Virus record (IMG/VR): IMGVR_UViG_2690316233_000003
Direction: 5' to 3' (one strand)
DNA from: a virus
Lineage: Duplodnaviria; Heunggongvirae; Uroviricota; Caudoviricetes
Length of the DNA stretch: 10,933 nt
The notes beneath the pieces were generated by a model that was not told the DNA's origin, did not search any database, and saw nothing but the letters and a program-made list of their open reading frames with translations. Position numbers and translations under genes: made by a program. Position 1 is the first letter of the stretch, and the number at the start of each line of letters is the position of its first letter. This document shows, piece after piece, positions 5,597-10,012 of this stretch.

Positions 5597-5687
5597 GAGA
5601 CAATAATACGATATGTACTTTTGGAATGCAAACAAAAAATACATCTTGTGCATGGATGGTTTTAGTACAGAGCGTAATAATAAGGAT
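5597..5687. promoter_or_regulatory. OR region: divergent pR (toward cro) and pRM (toward cI) with operator half-sites AGTAC...GTA(C/A)T
   Basis: Minus-strand pR: -35 TTGCAT (plus 5626-5631), 17-bp spacer, -10 TATTAT (plus 5603-5608). Operator-like 15-mers at 5605-5619 (revcomp AGTACATATCGTATT) and 5664-5678 (AGTACAGAGCGTAAT), related to the OL site AGTACAAATCGTACT. A possible weaker third site lies near 5636-5650. The pRM position was not resolved. Confidence 0.55.
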
Positions 5688-6347
5688 ATGAAAATGAAAT
5701 GGTATGAACTGGCTAGATCCAGAATGAAAGATCTCGGCATAACTCAAGAGAAGTTGGCTGAAGAGCTTGGTATGACGCAGGGTGGAATTGGTCACTGGTT
5801 GCGCGGATCTCGTCATCCATCTCTTGACGAGATTGGTGTGGTGTTTAAATACCTTGGTATTGATAGCGTCTCATTCAACCACGACGGTACATTTTCACCT
5901 GTTGGCGAATACTCATCTATCCCCGTTAAAAAACAATATGAGTACCCTGTTTTTTCTCATGTTCAGGCCGGGATGTTCTCGCCTGAGCTTAGAACCTTTA
6001 CCAAAGGTGATGCGGAGAGATGGGTCAGTACAACCAAAAAAGCCAGTGATTGTGCGTTCTGGCTTGAAGTTGAAGGTAATTCCATGACCGCACCAACAGG
6101 ATCCAAGCCAAGCTTTCCTGACGGGATGTTAATTCTCGTTGACCCTGATCAGGCTGTTGAGCCAGGTGATTTCTGCATAGCCAGACTTGGTGGTGACGAG
6201 TTTACCTTCAAGAAACTGATCAGGGATAGCGGTCAGGTGTTCCTACAACCACTAAACCCGCAATATCCAATGATCCCATGCAATGATAGCTGTTCCGTTG
6301 TAGGGAAAGTTATCGCCAGCCAGTGGCCTGAAGAGACATTTAGTTAA
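5688..6347 (+). CDS. cI: CI-type prophage repressor (HTH N-terminal domain + LexA/S24 self-cleaving C-terminal domain)
   Basis: The C-terminal two-thirds ([38 protein letters not shown]...GNSMTAP...[26 protein letters not shown]...) is near-identical to lambda CI, including the Ala-Gly cleavage site and the Ser/Lys dyad. The N-terminal HTH domain differs from lambda ([23 protein letters not shown]). The start could be 5688 or 5694 (leaderless or weak SD); the track start 5613 is rejected. Confidence 0.9.
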
Positions 6348-6377: not shown

Positions 6378-6407
6378 AACCCGACCTTAGTGTCGGGTTT
6401 TCTTTTT
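6378..6407 (+). terminator. intrinsic terminator downstream of cI
   Basis: AACCCGAC-cttagt-GTCGGGTT stem-loop followed by TTTTCTTTTT. Confidence 0.6.
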
Positions 6408-6459: not shown

Positions 6460-6501
6460 AGAACATTTTGTATTGACTCAATAAAGTACAAATCGTACTA
6501 T
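6460..6501 (+). promoter_or_regulatory. pL-like promoter with OL operators
   Basis: -35 TTGACT (6473-6478), 17-bp spacer, -10 TACTAT (6496-6501). Palindromic operator AGTACAAATCGTACT (6485-6499) lies in the spacer and -10; a second related site at 6460-6474 overlaps the -35. Located upstream of nutL and N. Confidence 0.55.
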
Positions 6502-6541: not shown

Positions 6542-6571
6542 GCTCTTAAAAATTAAGCCCTGAAGAAGGGC
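6542..6571 (+). promoter_or_regulatory. nutL (boxA + boxB)
   Basis: boxA-like GCTCTTAAA at 6542-6550 and boxB hairpin GCCCTGAAGAAGGGC at 6557-6571, matching lambda nutL as I recall it. Confidence 0.85.
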
Positions 6572-6681
6572 AGCATTCAAAGCAGAAGGCTTTGAGTAGC
6601 GCGAAATGCAGCTGCAAGACAGCAACCGTGGAGATAAGCATCACGGCGCGTTACTCAAAGCTAACTGACAGGAGAATGACC

Positions 6682-6813
6682 ATGAATAACGAAGCGCTTA
6701 AAGAAATGATTGCGAAACTCCTTGAGGACGCACGCCGAATTCAAGAAGTGGAGCCAAACGCAGGGACACAATCACGTATTGATGAAGCGATGAAGTTGCT
6801 CAAAGGAGAATAA
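6682..6813 (+). CDS. small ORF (43 aa; 45 aa if started at 6676) in the N leader, abutting the N start
   Basis: ACAGGAGAAT SD at about 6669-6675 followed by in-frame ATGs at 6676 and 6682. Translation MNNEALKEMIAKLLEDARRIQEVEPNAGTQSRIDEAMKLLKGE. Stop TAA 6811-6813 is 1 nt before the N ATG. The longer track ORF 6592-6813 has no SD at its start. Confidence 0.45.
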   Translation: MNNEALKEMIAKLLEDARRIQEVEPNAGTQSRIDEAMKLLKGE

Positions 6814-6814
6814 A

Positions 6815-7141
6815 ATGGATGCACAAACACGCCGCCGCGAACGTCGCGCAGAGAAGCAGACTCAATGGAAAGCAGCAAATCCCCTGTTGGTTGGGGTAAG
6901 CGCAAAACCAGTTAACCGCCCAATTCTCTCGCTGAATCGCAAACCGAAATCACGAGTAGAAAGCGCACTGAATCCGATAGACCTTACGGTGCTGGCTGAA
7001 TACCAAGAACAGATTGAAAGCAACCTGCATCGTATTGAGCGCAAGAATCAGCGCACATGGTACAGCAAGCCACGCAGTGAAATGGGTGTGACTTGTGTTG
7101 GTCGCCAGAAAATTAAATTAGGCAGCAAACCACTTATTTGA
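6815..7141 (+). CDS. N: antitermination protein N (lambda-type)
   Basis: Translation MDAQTRRRERRAEKQTQWKAANPLLVGVSAKPVNRPILSLNRKPKSRVESALNPIDLTVLAEYQEQIESNLHRIERKNQRTWYSKP... carries the arginine-rich boxB-binding motif and is near-identical to lambda N from memory. SD AAGGAG at 6803-6808. Confidence 0.95.
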   Translation: MDAQTRRRERRAEKQTQWKAANPLLVGVSAKPVNRPILSLNRKPKSRVESALNPIDLTVLAEYQEQIESNLHRIERKNQRTWYSKPRSEMGVTCVGRQKIKLGSKPLI

Positions 7142-7151
7142 GGACTGATAC

Positions 7152-7394
7152 ATGAGAGTAAAAACTATGGGCGCAAGCCCATTAAGCGGTCGTATTTTTC
7201 AAGGAACATTAAACACTGAAAAAGGAATGTGGGTAGGAAAGAAAGAAGATGTCACCGAACAGGCAGTTAAGGCAGTAGCTGAACACATGATGATAAAAGA
7301 CCAGAAATATGCATACGAAACGAAGGATGGCAAATGGCTGATAATAAGTCATCAAATAGTTGATAAATTACCAGAAGAGTTTATTGCTGATTAA
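7152..7394 (+). CDS. hypothetical protein (80 aa), first gene of the AT-rich accessory block after N
   Basis: ATG 7152 with GAGGA 8 nt upstream. Visibly AT-richer than the flanking conserved genes. No recognisable motif. Confidence 0.55.
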   Translation: MRVKTMGASPLSGRIFQGTLNTEKGMWVGKKEDVTEQAVKAVAEHMMIKDQKYAYETKDGKWLIISHQIVDKLPEEFIAD

Positions 7395-7425
7395 AATTAT
7401 TTTGGCATAAACAACAGAGGCTAAC

Positions 7426-7722
7426 ATGGAATTTAAAGGTACTGAAGGTAAGTGGGAAATAATGATGGATGGCGATGAGATTAAAATCATCCAGGCAGAC
7501 TCTCTTGAAAATGGCACAGGCTGTCGTTCGTATATTGCAATCTGTGAGGAAGTTCAATGCATTGAAGATGCTAATCTAATAGCGGCAGCACCTGACCTTC
7601 TCGAAGCACTTCAGTTATTACTTAAGCAATCCCAAAATAGAACAACGACAACATATCCAGAATGGTATGGAGCTGTTAATAAAGGTCTCGCAGCAATCAG
7701 AAAAGCTCTTGGGGATAAGTAA
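7426..7722 (+). CDS. hypothetical acidic protein (98 aa) with C-terminal NLIAAAPDLLEAL motif
   Basis: ATG 7426 with AGAGG 5 nt upstream. Stop overlaps the next start (TAATG). I recall the AAAP(D/E)LLEAL motif from Ead/Ea22-like phage proteins; this is unverified. Confidence 0.6.
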   Translation: MEFKGTEGKWEIMMDGDEIKIIQADSLENGTGCRSYIAICEEVQCIEDANLIAAAPDLLEALQLLLKQSQNRTTTTYPEWYGAVNKGLAAIRKALGDK

Positions 7723-7910
7723 TGAAAGTAAAAATAACTGCTTCTAATACCAGTTTTGTTAGTGTTGGTGATATTACAGAAGTAATAACAAACCATGATG
7801 GAACACAAGTTATGTGGTCTGATTTTTGTAAAAGATATGAGCGAGTTAGTTGGTGTAAAAACGTATGGGGAGTCGAATACGAAGAATTACCTGAAATGCA
7901 TGACGAATAA
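7722..7910 (+). CDS. hypothetical small protein (62 aa)
   Basis: Translationally coupled to the upstream ORF (TAATG overlap); followed by a hairpin and an intrinsic terminator. Confidence 0.55.
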   Translation: MKVKITASNTSFVSVGDITEVITNHDGTQVMWSDFCKRYERVSWCKNVWGVEYEELPEMHDE

Positions 7911-8005
7911 GCACTGTGTATTCATTCCAACGAGTGAATACACGGAGCAATGTCGCTCGTAACTAAACAGGAGCCGACTTGTTCTGATTATTGGAAATCT
8001 TCTTT

Positions 8006-8033
8006 GCCCTCCAGTGTGAGGGCGATTTTTTAT
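8006..8033 (+). terminator. intrinsic terminator inside the pL operon (between the 62-aa and 122-aa genes)
   Basis: GCCCTC-cagtgt-GAGGGC stem-loop (8006-8023) followed by GATTTTTTAT. Confidence 0.6.
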
Positions 8034-8051
8034 CTGTGAGGATATGAACAG

Positions 8052-8420
8052 ATGTCAAACATCAAAAAATACATCATTGATTACGACTGGAAAGCATCAA
8101 TAGAAATTGAAATCGACCATGACGTAATGACAGAGGAAAAACTTCACCAGATTAATAATTTCTGGTCAGACTCTGAATACCGACTCAATAAACACGGTGC
8201 TGTATTAAATGCTGTATTAATCATGCTGGCGCAACATGCTCTGCTTATAGCAATTTCGCAAGACTTAAATGCATATGGTGTTGTTTGTGAGTTCGACTGG
8301 GATGATGGAAATGGTCAGGAAGGATGGCCTCCAATGGATGGTAGTGAAGGAATAAGAATTACCGATATCGATACATCAGGAATATTTGATTCAGATGATA
8401 TGACTATCAAAGCCGCCTGA
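8052..8420 (+). CDS. hypothetical strongly acidic protein (122 aa) in the slot preceding cIII
   Basis: ATG 8052 with GAGGA about 9 nt upstream. By my hand count about 23 Asp/Glu against 8 Lys/Arg, with a D-rich C-terminus (TDIDTSGIFDSDDMT). A GC hairpin (8409-8430) overlaps its stop. Confidence 0.65.
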   Translation: MSNIKKYIIDYDWKASIEIEIDHDVMTEEKLHQINNFWSDSEYRLNKHGAVLNAVLIMLAQHALLIAISQDLNAYGVVCEFDWDDGNGQEGWPPMDGSEGIRITDIDTSGIFDSDDMTIKAA

Positions 8421-8630: not shown

Positions 8631-8767
8631 CCATCAATCACCAGATGCTTCGTGCTGCACAGAACAAAGCAGTAATAGCCAGATTTATTGGTGATTCCAA
8701 AATGTGGCTTGAAGCAAATAAAGCGATGAAATCAGCTATCAACCTTCCGTGGTATCGCAGGAAATGA
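8615..8767 (+). CDS. kil: Kil-like small protein (50 aa; host cell-division inhibitor family)
   Basis: Not in the track. GGAGG at 8606-8610, ATG at 8615. Translation MRNEIAINHQMLRAAQNKAVIARFIGDSKMWLEANKAMKSAINLPWYRRK shares the I-A-x-F-I-G-D-x-K-M...EA motif I recall from lambda Kil. Position between cIII and arf/erf matches P22. Confidence 0.6.
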   Translation: MRNEIAINHQMLRAAQNKAVIARFIGDSKMWLEANKAMKSAINLPWYRRK

Positions 8768-9023: not shown

Positions 9024-9629
9024 ATGAGCAAAGAATTTTACGCAAGACTGGCAGCTATTCAGGAGAATCTGAACGCGCCAAAGAATCAATACAACTCATT
9101 CGGCAAATATAAATACAGAAGCTGCGAAGACATTCTTGAGGGTGTTAAGCCGTTACTGAATGGCCTGTTTTTATCAATCAGCGATGAAGTTGTGTTGATT
9201 GGTGATCGGTATTACGTGAAAGCCACGGCAACTATTACCGATGGCGAAAACAGTCATACGGCAACCGCTCTTGCACGAGAGGAAGAAAGCAAGAAAGGAA
9301 TGGATTCTGCACAAGTTACGGGAGCCACAAGCTCTTATGCACGCAAGTACTGCCTCAATGGTTTGTTCGGCATTGATGATGCGAAAGATGCAGATACCGA
9401 CGAGCATAAACATCAGCAGAACGCAGCAGCAAAGCAATCAAAACCATCACCTACACCTGAACAGGTTCTAAAAGCATTCACTGACGCAGCATTGCAGAAA
9501 AACACCGTAGAAGAGCTTAAACAGGCGTTCGCCAAAGCGTGGAAGATGCTCGAAGGCACACCTGAGCAGCACAAAGCGCAGGACGTTTACAACATCAGAC
9601 GAGACGAATTAGAAGGAGCGGCTGCTTAA
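9024..9629 (+). CDS. erf: Erf (essential recombination function, single-strand annealing protein)
   Basis: Translation MSKEFYARLAAIQENLNAPKNQYNSFGKYKYRSCEDILEGVKPLLNGLFLSISDEVVLIGDRYYVKATATITDGENSH... matches my recollection of P22 Erf. The track start 8994 is a TTG; the ATG at 9024 is preferred. Confidence 0.8.
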   Translation: MSKEFYARLAAIQENLNAPKNQYNSFGKYKYRSCEDILEGVKPLLNGLFLSISDEVVLIGDRYYVKATATITDGENSHTATALAREEESKKGMDSAQVTGATSSYARKYCLNGLFGIDDAKDADTDEHKHQQNAAAKQSKPSPTPEQVLKAFTDAALQKNTVEELKQAFAKAWKMLEGTPEQHKAQDVYNIRRDELEGAAA

Positions 9630-10012
9630 TGGCACATTCGATTACTGTAAGACTAAACAAGCCCGCAAGAGAGTTTCAGGCCGGGGAAAATATCGGATTC
9701 AACATCCGTGCTGGCGTTCAGTATTACGATCGCCAGACAAAAAAGAAAGAATGGACAAACTACAGCGCCGTTGTATTTGCCAAGCCGGGAGAGCAAGCGG
9801 ATTACTACCGTAGTGTTCTTGTTGAAGGTGGCATTGTAGAAATTACCGGAGAAAACATCAGGGTTGATGTTTATCAGGGGCAAAATGGTCAATCAATCAC
9901 TCTTGAATTACTGAATGCAAAGATTGGATTTGCAACTTCAGGAAACAGCCCGCAGCAGCAAAGTAGTAACCAGCAGAACACTCCTGTATACGACGATTCC
10001 ATCCCATTCTGA
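9629..10012 (+). CDS. SSB-like single-stranded DNA-binding protein (127 aa)
   Basis: TAATG overlap with the erf stop. Gln/Ser-rich linker and C-terminal acidic tail ...YDDSIPF, resembling the bacterial SSB tail (DDDIPF). Sits immediately after the annealing protein. Confidence 0.65.
   Translation: MAHSITVRLNKPAREFQAGENIGFNIRAGVQYYDRQTKKKEWTNYSAVVFAKPGEQADYYRSVLVEGGIVEITGENIRVDVYQGQNGQSITLELLNAKIGFATSGNSPQQQSSNQQNTPVYDDSIPF

Follow-up and report, generated by a model that had tools for sequence, protein, structure and literature searches.

A mosaic gene assigned to the XkdD/Y8K6 family and its 62-aa neighbor in the early-left operon of a lambdoid prophage

Locus and operon context

We analyzed a stretch of phage DNA (referred to here as the window; 10,933 nt) in which two small adjacent genes, encoding proteins of 98 aa and 62 aa, sit in the N-dependent early-left (pL) operon of a lambdoid prophage. 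The operon was assigned to this class because the antiterminator N gene is present, and the gene maps of lambda and P22 were used as the comparison for its context. The gene order is N, DUF7446, 98-aa gene, 62-aa gene, PreS sRNA/tL2a, ea10, cIII, kil, arf-like, erf, ssb, and abc2, where the last six genes were identified as encoding cIII, Kil, an arf-like "recombinase," Erf, SSB, and Abc2. The features of the locus are as follows.

6557 to 6571, upstream of N, reverse-strand match in the scan: nutL boxB, GCCCTGAAGAAGGGC
6815 to 7141, plus strand: antiterminator N gene (Pfam N36, E = 6.2e-26; phrog_271)
7152 to 7394, plus strand: DUF7446 gene (80 aa), the first accessory gene after N (PF24233, E = 5.6e-29; phrog_1578)
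7416 to 7420, plus strand: Shine-Dalgarno-like AGAGG, 5 nt before the 98-aa ATG (read from the sequence)
7426 to 7722, plus strand: 98-aa gene, XkdD/Y8K6 family (PF27050, PHROG 1273; full-length match to phrog_1273)
7720 to 7724, plus strand: TAATG stop/start overlap (TAA, 7720 to 7722; ATG, 7722 to 7724; one base in common)
7722 to 7910, plus strand: 62-aa gene (PHROG 10407; phrog_10407, E = 2.9e-46)
7916 to 7943, plus strand: 12-bp hairpin in the conserved lambda ral-ea10 spacer (fold; identity to lambda)
7944 to 8031, plus strand: putative LPR1/PreS sRNA, about 88 nt (identity to lambda; 5' coordinate from the reported length)
8004 to 8031, plus strand: terminator tL2a, with a GC-rich stem (8004 to 8025) and a U-run (8026 to 8031) (terminator scan)
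8052 to 8420, plus strand: Ea10 homolog (DUF2528), the next gene of the operon (PF10800, E = 3.7e-46)

Both ORFs and their TAATG junction thus exist as originally predicted. A search for a promoter belonging to the pair yielded 6 promoter-like sites (5.2 expected), none of them significant; a dedicated promoter at 7368 to 7397 was considered and rejected, since the single promoter-like site there falls within chance expectation. Both genes would be translated from the N-antiterminated pL transcript.

Downstream of the pair, the segment from 7911 to 8051 is identical to the lambda ral-ea10 spacer at 141 of 141 bases. The Ea10 homolog that follows matches lambda ea10 in position and in its 369-nt length, and its first codons, like the spacer upstream of it, are identical to those of lambda. 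In lambda, an RNA named LPR1 lies between ral and ea10 and has its 3' end at tL2a; this RNA, PreS, is bound by Hfq (approximately 88/68 nt) and activates the translation of dnaN, and its sequence was reported in 2,537 genomes (bioRxiv 10.1101/2024.10.31.621285). We found the PreS block in 2,237 of the 5,426 complete Escherichia coli genomes, versus 60 for the gene pair. The original prediction had placed an 11-bp-stem hairpin and then a terminator after the pair. The hairpin is indeed present, with 12 pairs (including one G-U pair) rather than 11, and the terminator was recovered as an intrinsic terminator at 8004 to 8031 (terminator scan; fold z = -4.6). By sequence comparison, the two elements belong to the widespread and conserved PreS/tL2a block and are not private to the pair. 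The hairpin abuts the 5' side of the start deduced for the 88-nt PreS and might conceivably have a role in processing or mRNA stability. Unlike that of lambda, the putative PreS block here forms the 3' flank of the 62-aa gene and not of ral. Rfam 15 contained no family for the PreS spacer.

The lambda orf28-ral segment occupies a position identical to that of the pair, i.e., between N and the PreS/tL2a-ea10 block, and it consists of small dispensable accessory genes, as the slot of the pair would. In RefSeq, Ral-family genes are alternatives in the same slot of other E. coli prophages, while the pair itself has no sequence similarity to Ral.

The 98-aa gene: family, fold, and mosaic structure

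Residues 1 to 97 of the 98-aa protein aligned with positions 4 to 100 of the 103-position phrog_1273 profile (E = 2.8e-30). Homologs with 88 to 96% identity to the protein carry the precomputed label PF27050, and a homolog in the same position is named "XkdD/Y8K6 family phage-associated protein" in RefSeq; NCBI already lists the exact 98-aa sequence under the name hypothetical protein. A family profile search retrieved 5,925 representatives of 50%-identity clusters (E ≤ 1e-3), nearly all of which are 85 to 130 aa in length and match end to end (profile positions 1 to 97 are covered by nearly all of those listed). All of the 54 diverse family members tested matched phrog_1273. Three long repetitive proteins (P0153, P0167, and P0239) that had been candidates for domain fusions proved to be repeat-driven false positives of the profile search. 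The protein has the features of the family (i.e., a length of 98 aa within a range of about 85 to 130 aa, a location after N in a pL operon, and three conserved blocks), and these comparisons identify it as a typical member, along its full length, of the XkdD/Y8K6 phage family, which is very large and already catalogued. Neither the 98-aa nor the 62-aa protein had a meaningful match in NCBIfam release 20 or in a copy of Pfam without the PF27050 model, and PDB sequence searches with single sequences and profiles gave no match below E = 0.1. PBSX XkdD, which is encoded in the PBSX early region, is presumably also a family member, going by NCBI's family name.

The protein can be divided into five segments.

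7429 to 7455, plus strand: N-terminal anchor E-F-K-G-T-x-G-x-W, residues 2 to 10 (conservation)
7456 to 7563, plus strand: variable cassette 1, residues 11 to 46, predicted three-stranded beta meander (AF2 strands; cassette types)
7564 to 7614, plus strand: motif E-D-A-N-L-I-A-A-A-P-D-L-L-E-A-L-Q, residues 47 to 63 of 98 (conservation; helix 46 to 70)
7615 to 7692, plus strand: variable cassette 2, residues 64 to 89, running from the last part of helix 1 through a loop into helix 2 (cassette types)
7693 to 7719, plus strand: C-terminal anchor A-I-R-K-A-L-G-D-K, residues 90 to 98 (conservation)

The 98-aa protein contains all three of the family blocks (i.e., F-K-G-T-x-G-x-W, A-N-A-x-L-I-A-A-A-P-D/E-L-L-E-A-L, and A-I-x-K-A-L-G-D/E). 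Among 54 diverse members, each of F3, T6, G8, and W10 in the first block, L51, I52, A54, A55, P56, L58, L59, and L62 in the motif, and A90, I91, K93, and A94 in the last block is kept in at least 90%; L95 and G96 are kept in at least 90% of the A4 set. The motif is therefore nearly invariant across the homologs, and it marks a recurrent family of small phage proteins, as the original prediction had it. The same prediction located the motif at the C terminus of the protein and on otherwise unrelated proteins of the Ead/Ea22-like type, and these parts did not hold. The motif is internal, being followed by 32 to 35 more residues that include the second conserved block, A-I-x-K-A-L-G-D/E, at the true C terminus, and its carriers align end to end as one family.

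That the motif is a portable C-terminal signature of Ead/Ea22-like proteins is now extremely improbable. Such proteins are also encoded in lambdoid early-left operons, and their genes do occur in the same operons. However, they are about 180 to 200 aa long and are encoded far downstream in the operon. Pfam Ead_Ea22 (PF13935) was matched neither by the 98-aa protein (E ≤ 1) nor by the 54 family members (E ≤ 0.01). The pattern AAAP[DE]LL is absent from both lambda Ea22 and P22 EaD, and these two proteins did not match the family profile (E = 0.2 and E = 0.038, respectively, in a five-sequence search).

An AF2 model of the 98-aa monomer (pLDDT 88, pTM 0.77) contained strands at residues 10 to 15, 18 to 23, and 38 to 43 and helices at residues 46 to 70 and 77 to 95. 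An earlier model built from a shallow alignment had a pLDDT of 71, and its PDB Foldseek matches were noise. In the predicted structure, helix 1 begins with the NLIAAAPDLLEAL motif and is part of a helical hairpin packed on a small N-terminal beta meander. Rather than being a terminal tag, the motif constitutes the invariant core of a single homologous fold.

The segments between the conserved blocks behave differently. Cassette 1 occurs in 79 types among 215 proteins, and the type carried by the 98-aa gene is also found in gp030 of the virulent Klebsiella phage KpS8. Cassette 2 occurs in 91 types, which reassort with those of cassette 1 (cross-table). At the nucleotide level, a 24-nt sequence in the motif DNA (CTAATAGCGGCAGCACCTGACCTT) is identical at 22 of 24 positions in four E. 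coli genes with differing flanking cassettes; the alignment of these four genes contains all four cassette combinations and a second joint in the tail. Megablast breakpoints fell at query nt 154 to 174 and 266 to 313. The 98-aa gene is a mosaic of two variable cassettes set between three conserved anchors (the N terminus, the motif, and the C-terminal AIxKALGD/E). Recombination inside the anchor-coding DNA reassorts the cassettes, and the motif DNA is one recombination joint.

The same family is represented in the model phage P22 by orf78 (profile E = 2.6e-13), which UniProt describes as [quoted passage not shown]; judging from "8.6 kDa," it is probably the "Y8K6" of the NCBI family name. Like the 98-aa protein, P22 orf78 has the motif (...LASAAPELLEAL...) and the conserved tail (...AIGKALGKE). 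It lies in the same slot, i.e., after the N-analogue gene 24 and ral and before the terminator preceding c3, and its end overlaps the beginning of orf87, the small gene downstream, in the manner of the 98-aa/62-aa junction. It differs in its length (78 aa), in having another cassette 1, and in lacking the F-K-G-T-x-G-x-W start, and orf87 (MEWIKCSERMPE...) is unrelated to the 62-aa protein.

The genes neighboring family members are typical early-region genes, such as those for N, Erf/RecT, cIII, and methylases. Since Erf/RecT-type recombinases are among the commonest of these neighbors, and arf-like, erf, ssb, and abc2 lie downstream in the operon of the window, one could regard the 98-aa protein as an accessory factor of the recombination/replication module (e.g., a helper of Erf/RecT, SSB, or Abc). 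We find this highly doubtful. The whole lambdoid pL region adjoins recombination genes, so that proximity is little informative, and PreS/tL2a and the ea10-cIII-kil genes separate the pair from erf. In addition, some family members sit among nucleotide-metabolism genes of virulent Mydovirus phages, and structure and PDB profile searches with the 98-aa protein detected no nucleic-acid-binding fold.

The junction and the association of the two genes

The original prediction took the TAATG junction as a sign that the two proteins are made in a fixed ratio, as in two-component modules. The same TAATG occurs at the erf-ssb junction of this operon (9627 to 9631), and the kil-arf junction is ATGA. 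Among 88 family genes, 56 overlap the gene downstream and a further 16 lie within 15 nt of it, and these downstream genes are highly diverse. Stop/start overlaps are generic to tightly packed pL operons and say nothing about a shared function. The sequence GGGGA (7711 to 7715), which is located in the tail codons of the 98-aa gene 6 nt before the ATG of the 62-aa gene, is likely a ribosome-binding site. The 62-aa cistron would be started by termination-reinitiation and/or from this GGGGA in the upstream Leu-Gly-Asp codons. An RNA structure that hides the 62-aa start and thereby forces coupling was rejected because the junction showed no more structure than shuffled sequence (z = +0.95).

In an alternative view, selection at the DNA/RNA level, more than protein function, maintains the conserved blocks and above all the C-terminal tail, as homologous-recombination joints through which modules are exchanged and as an embedded ribosome-binding site for any cistron downstream. 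The 24-nt joint lies between cassettes that cannot be aligned, and the joint in the tail, AAAGCTCTTGG(G/A)GA, stays conserved where the downstream genes differ. Unrelated genes that precede 62-aa homologs also end in ...ALGDK, ALGGE, or AIGEEE, and junction strings such as AGGAGTGATG and AGGAGTAACCATG recur across the family. However, the amino acid blocks are nearly invariant in members only 25 to 49% identical to the window protein, they persist at very different composition (P0254) and in virulent phages where DNA identity is lost, and in the fold, which is predicted with confidence, they lie in the packed core. An explanation mainly at the DNA/RNA level is thus very unlikely and would account for at most the last two or three residues; the two kinds of constraint probably act together.

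The 62-aa protein aligned over its full length with the phrog_10407 profile (residues 1 to 62 on positions 1 to 62 of 62), and its exact sequence is on record in 652 contigs. In comparison with a 66%-identical homolog, its gene is under purifying selection (dN, 0.24; dS, 1.08; ratio, about 0.22). This family is narrow and occurs in enterobacterial temperate phages; clustering at 90% identity gave only 21 clusters, which come from E. coli and Salmonella. The 62-aa protein is the product of a separate, genuine, and narrowly distributed gene. A natural fusion of the two proteins was sought in phrog_16117, which has the 62-aa domain at its C terminus, but the 98-aa protein does not match it.

The two genes are associated in one direction. 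A family gene lies directly upstream in 54 of the 74 scorable loci with a 62-aa homolog (about 73%), while the reverse is rare, a 62-aa homolog being found downstream of 6 of 83 family genes (about 7%; IMG/VR loci). In the other loci (about 27%), 62-aa homologs follow other genes, including an unrelated 44-aa gene (12 loci; e.g., ETEC1730) and a 53-aa gene (3 loci). Conversely, phage mEp043 has a different gene, of 52 aa, after the 98-aa gene, which elsewhere precedes an unrelated 67-aa gene. Among complete E. coli genomes, 195 carry any part of the pair and 60 of these carry both genes.

These data bear on the proposal that the pair is a dedicated two-protein module (for anti-defense, exclusion, or a toxin-antitoxin system) whose stoichiometry is fixed by the overlap. 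The one-base stop/start overlap and the 54 of 74 loci with a family gene immediately upstream agree with it, as do diverged pairs (62-aa proteins at 50 to 60% identity, with family genes of 78 to 116 aa) in loci L144, L145, L149, and L154 to L156, and locus L036, where a family member 31% identical to the window protein accompanies a 49%-identical 62-aa homolog. Nevertheless, we judge such a module to be unlikely. About 5,900 family clusters at 50% identity stand against 21 clusters of the 62-aa protein at 90% identity, with about 7% of the sampled family genes paired, and all combinations of cassettes and neighbors occur. The 52-aa, 67-aa, 44-aa, and 53-aa neighbors mentioned above also speak against a module. 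PADLOC (both proteins; E ≤ 1) returned no defense or toxin-antitoxin family, the pair has no significant promoter of its own, and the adjacency can be explained by linkage in one slot together with a common junction sequence. The fixed-ratio claim is not supported; the two genes reassort freely, and overlaps are routine in the operon. The nonrandom placement of the 62-aa gene, including the pairs that have diverged to 50 to 60% identity in the 62-aa protein, may still reflect some functional tie.

Overall, we consider it probable that the pair represents ordinary accessory genes in the variable lambda "ral slot" that can be exchanged separately.

Possible functions and significance

The database names of the proteins were all "hypothetical" and a full-text literature search for the motif returned no paper, so the original statement that no function is on record was sustained. 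Literature searches for the motif, PF27050, phrog_1273, XkdD, Y8K6, and orf78 found no function, and a lambdoid co-transfer paper and a Red-recombination paper contained nothing specific on the genes of the pair.

As accessory genes of this slot, the two may encode small, nonenzymatic, and dispensable binding proteins that modulate a factor of the host or of a competing phage, as do the neighboring slot genes ral, sieB, and gene 17. We advance this reading tentatively, on the basis of the small size of the proteins, the absence of enzyme motifs, the operon position, and the variability of the cassettes. The conserved scaffold of the 98-aa protein would then present the variable cassettes, and these would determine specificity. 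The phage DMS3 protein Aqs1 (PDB 6v7u), one of the small helical-hairpin proteins with which phages modulate their hosts, has a generic two-helix hairpin likeness to the 98-aa protein at 10% identity; it has neither the beta meander nor the motif, and it offers an analogy for the mode of action and not evidence of homology. Ral, the occupant of the slot in lambda, alleviates restriction (bioRxiv 10.1101/2024.10.31.621285); a corresponding anti-defense role for the pair is conjecture. A more specific version, in which the family is a cassette-display scaffold whose three invariant anchors double as recombination joints and whose two hypervariable surface cassettes are swapped to follow variable host targets (e.g., immunity proteins), with the 62-aa protein as a cofactor confined to one enterobacterial branch, appears quite unlikely at present.

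The window contains no new object: both exact proteins are already on public record, labels for the family exist in Pfam, PHROG, and NCBI, and the RNA has been published. The analysis instead corrects the reading of the motif, which is not of the Ead/Ea22 type, is not C-terminal, and is no mark of an obligate pair. It also draws attention to a "known unknown," i.e., a family of about 5,900 clusters at 50% identity that is found in both temperate and virulent phages, the model phage P22 among them, and for which searches of the literature, the PDB, and databases found neither a function nor a solved structure. P22 orf78 and mEp043 gp46 are tractable entry points to this family, and the architecture of cassettes and anchors hints at the location of any specificity. 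In different prophages, the mRNA context of PreS is supplied by the variable accessory genes upstream of it. If the cassette-display scaffold were true, it would provide a role for one of the largest families of uncharacterized small phage proteins, including P22 orf78.

Genomic setting of the gene pair

The window comes from a lambda-like prophage and comprises its immunity and early region; the two overlapping genes studied here (i.e., the pair, encoding proteins of 98 aa and 62 aa) occupy the "ral slot" of lambda, in which variable accessory genes lie between N and the constant PreS-ea10 block. Ral-family genes are found at the same position in other prophages (RefSeq). The features are as follows.

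Features of the window
5613-6347 (+), CI-type repressor
6378-6399, candidate bidirectional terminator directly after the repressor gene (symmetric hairpin AACCCGAC...GTCGGGTT, T-runs on both strands)
6473-6501 (+), pL-like promoter
6557-6571 (+), nutL boxB, GCCCTGAAGAAGGGC
6676-6813, conserved small ORF of about 43 to 45 aa (MTMNNEALKEM...; phrog_32391, E = 1.5e-33)
6815-7141 (+), antiterminator N (Pfam N36, E = 6e-26)
7152-7394 (+), DUF7446 gene, just upstream of the pair
7426-7722 (+), 98-aa ORF
7722-7910 (+), 62-aa ORF
7911-8051, 141-nt spacer between the 62-aa ORF and the Ea10/DUF2528 gene
8052-8420 (+), Ea10/DUF2528 gene
Beyond 8420 (+), cIII, kil, arf-like gene, erf, ssb, and abc2, in that order
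Minus strand, cII, replication genes (including a DnaB-type helicase, assigned by its sequence), and nin-region genes

Both ORFs are real genes. PHROG 1273 covers the full length of the 98-aa protein (E = 2.8e-30), and the 62-aa protein has a match in PHROG 10407 (E = 2.9e-46); for the latter, a comparison with a 66%-identical homologue gave a dN of 0.24 and a dS of 1.08, and the protein is therefore under purifying selection. The exact sequences of both are already in NCBI, where they are labelled "hypothetical protein," and nothing in the pair region is new as an object.

Three neighboring elements deserve mention. The hairpin at 6378-6399 resembles a bidirectional terminator parting the immunity genes from pL; rex genes are absent between the repressor gene and pL. 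The small ORF lies between the nutL boxB and N, its last base 1 nt short of the N start codon, whereas the annotated nutL of lambda precedes N by just about 80 nt, and no ORF is annotated between the two. The DUF7446 protein (residues 17 to 68) has a weak PADLOC match (E = 0.0078) to DndE, which belongs to DNA phosphorothioation systems; the match may be due to chance or may point to mimicry of part of the Dnd machinery.

A large family of mosaic genes

A word-indexed search returned 164 close homologues of the 98-aa protein, all with precomputed PF27050 assignments and none with an informative name; membership of the window protein in PF27050 is thus indirect, resting on these homologues and not on a direct model match. 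One E. coli member is named "XkdD/Y8K6 family phage-associated protein" in RefSeq. A profile built from 22 close homologues and run against 1.84 billion cluster representatives matched 5,925 proteins (E ≤ 1e-3), almost all of 85 to 130 aa and aligned end to end, and a second profile search yielded at least 7,587 clusters at 90% identity. Three blocks are nearly invariant among 54 members with just 25 to 49% identity to the window protein: F-K-G-T-x-G-x-W near the N terminus, A-N-A-x-L-I-A-A-A-P-D/E-L-L-E-A-L in the middle, and A-I-x-K-A-L-G-D/E near the C terminus. The original prediction, that the protein carries a motif recurring in small phage proteins, is borne out by these matches. It had placed the motif at the protein's end; the motif (EDANLIAAAPDLLEALQ) is in fact internal (residues 47 to 63), followed by 35 residues that close with a second conserved block, AIRKALGDK.

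The Ead/Ea22-like identity first proposed was rejected. The window protein has no match to Pfam Ead_Ea22 at E ≤ 1, nor does any of its 54 relatives at E ≤ 0.01. Lambda Ea22 and P22 EaD, translated from the reference genomes, lack the motif and do not match the family profile. Since the founding proteins lack the motif and the Pfam model finds no match, the family name was mistaken, and the idea of an Ead/Ea22 tag is refuted.

A member does occur in P22, where orf78 (...KLASAAPELLEAL...AAIGKALGKE) lies between ral and gene 17 of the pL operon and matches the family profile (E = 2.6e-13). Its UniProt entry reads [quoted passage not shown] from which "Y8K6" probably derives. The family also extends to virulent phages, such as Klebsiella Mydovirus KpS8 (gp030; L162:2504-2761), and 85-aa members were found in about 40 other Mydovirus-type genomes, i.e., large virulent phages of Klebsiella, Cronobacter, Salmonella, and Proteus. 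In these members, the central cassette shows about 50% identity to its counterpart in the window protein and is therefore common to temperate and virulent phages. Some phages carry two family copies, at times in tandem (L055:3992-4646, L085:3830-4584, L027, L043, and L075), and some proteins contain an internal duplication with two complete motif copies (P0208 and P0254).

The family gene itself is a mosaic. Megablast alignments to complete E. coli genomes are broken at two places in the query, nt 154 to 174 (the LIAAAPDL codons) and nt 266 to 313 (the tail and junction). Aligned at the DNA level, four E. coli genes (window, EC974, AW1.7, and E. coli W) show all four combinations of cassette 1 (residues 11 to 46) and cassette 2 (residues 64 to 89): the window gene has the cassette 1 of EC974 with a different cassette 2, and the cassette 2 of AW1.7 with a different cassette 1, while EC974 and E. 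coli W have cassette 2 in common and differ in cassette 1. The DNA of the joints hardly varies, a 24-nt stretch of the motif (CTAATAGCGGCAGCACCTGACCTT) being identical at 22 of 24 positions across the four genes and the tail sequence AAAGCTCTTGG(G/A)GA likewise being nearly invariant. A cross-table of 215 proteins gave 79 cassette-1 types, 91 cassette-2 types, and 126 combinations, with common cassette-2 types occurring with several cassette-1 types.

An AlphaFold2 model from a 56-sequence alignment is confident (pLDDT, 88; pTM, 0.77) and predicts a three-stranded beta meander (residues 10 to 15, 18 to 23, and 38 to 43) followed by a helical hairpin (helices 46 to 70 and 77 to 95). The motif forms the first half of helix 1, and the C-terminal block closes helix 2. 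The conserved hydrophobic residues L51, A55, L58, L62 and I52, L59, with I91, A94, and L95, are so spaced that they would fit a packed core. Given near-invariant joints between reassorting cassettes, the conserved blocks serve both as fold determinants and as recombination joints. That they are kept mainly for needs at the DNA or RNA level would agree with the near-identity of the joint DNA, and we consider this improbable beside blocks that persist in proteins of 25 to 49% identity.

One-sided linkage and a generic overlap

The association of the two genes is real, yet one-sided and breakable. Viewed from the 62-aa gene (76 IMG/VR loci, 74 scorable), a family gene abuts upstream in 54 loci, some of them holding diverged pairs whose 62-aa proteins are just 50 to 60% identical. 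An unrelated 44-aa gene (MNAVEFTKWMAEQD...ANALGDK) takes that place in 12 loci and a 53-aa gene ending in ...AKAIGEEE in 3; the remaining loci have an intergenic gap. Viewed from the family gene (88 genes from 80 IMG/VR loci and reference loci), the start of the next ORF is overlapped in 56 cases and lies within 15 nt in 16. These downstream neighbors are very diverse, i.e., 62-aa, 52-aa (MNKKYIVEV...), and 67-aa types, TraR/DksA-like 72-aa proteins, small membrane peptides, and second family copies; of the 83 family genes from IMG/VR loci, just 6 are followed by a 62-aa homologue. Co-occurrence of homologous pairs thus holds from the 62-aa side and fails from the other, and of 195 complete E. 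coli genomes that have at least a portion of the pair, only 60 have both genes.

The 44-aa protein often substitutes for the family gene (L004:2388-2522 in E. coli ETEC1730, L086, L089, L091, and others). It starts with ..EFTKW and ends with ..ANALGDK, echoing the first and last family blocks, and may have arisen by internal deletion, although it does not match the family profile significantly (E = 0.14). In the 144-aa PHROG family phrog_16117, the 62-aa domain forms the C terminus (profile positions 89 to 142) and follows an unrelated N-terminal stretch of about 88 aa, and the 62-aa unit can therefore be a domain of a larger protein.

The predicted TAATG junction is present at 7720-7724, the 98-aa stop codon (TAA, 7720-7722) and the 62-aa start codon (ATG, 7722-7724) overlapping by one base. 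Every upstream gene abutting the 62-aa gene ends in the tail A-[LI]-G-[DEG]-[EK], within whose codons GGGGA or GGAGGTGA lies 5 to 7 nt before the ATG. This pattern points to a junction and ribosome-binding sequence that travel with the 62-aa gene. Stop/start overlaps occur at 4 of the 11 junctions of the window's pL operon, including erf-ssb (9627-9631, also TAATG) and kil-arf (8764-8767, ATGA), and a fold test of the 98-aa/62-aa junction RNA found no significant structure. The overlap is therefore operon housekeeping and not a two-component hallmark. The generic overlap, the breakable linkage, and the lack of a PADLOC match for the pair speak against a two-component module made in fixed ratio, as originally proposed; despite the 54 abutting loci, a true two-protein module is unlikely.

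The PreS spacer and possible roles of the pair

A hairpin and a terminator were both found after the pair, as predicted; the hairpin (7916-7943) has 12 pairs, one of them G-U, rather than 11, and the terminator comprises a stem (8004-8025) and a T-run. Compared with shuffled sequence, the spacer has a far more stable fold (z = -4.6), and it is identical at 141 of 141 positions to the ral-ea10 spacer of lambda. According to a 2024 preprint, the lambda spacer encodes an Hfq-dependent sRNA, LPR1/PreS (about 88 nt, processed to about 68 nt), whose GC-rich stem and U-tail are the terminator tL2a; PreS is produced in the lytic cycle, activates dnaN translation, supports phage replication, and is conserved in 2,537 genomes (bioRxiv 10.1101/2024.10.31.621285). 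The block occurs, without annotation, in 2,237 of 5,426 complete E. coli genomes and has no family in Rfam 15. With a length of 88 nt measured from the U-run, the PreS 5' end would lie at about 7944, right behind the hairpin. The hairpin is conserved, and the passages of the preprint drawn on here do not mention it; we conjecture that it may be a processing signal for the PreS 5' end or a 3' stabilizer of the upstream mRNA.

Both genes would be expressed from the N-antiterminated pL transcript, with the 62-aa cistron started by reinitiation or by initiation at the embedded Shine-Dalgarno sequence. Foldseek searches against viral models found uncharacterized relatives of the 98-aa protein only, and PDB sequence-profile searches found no match, leaving no solved or annotated relative from which function could be transferred. 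With erf and ssb in the same operon, the 98-aa protein might be a helper of the recombination module, which strikes us as very doubtful. Characterized slot occupants, i.e., ral, sieB, and gene 17, modulate host or rival-phage factors. By analogy, our tentative guess is that both proteins of the pair may be small, dispensable binding proteins of this kind, the conserved scaffold of the 98-aa protein presenting two exchangeable cassettes. The importance of the finding rests on the size of this uncharacterized family and its presence in P22.
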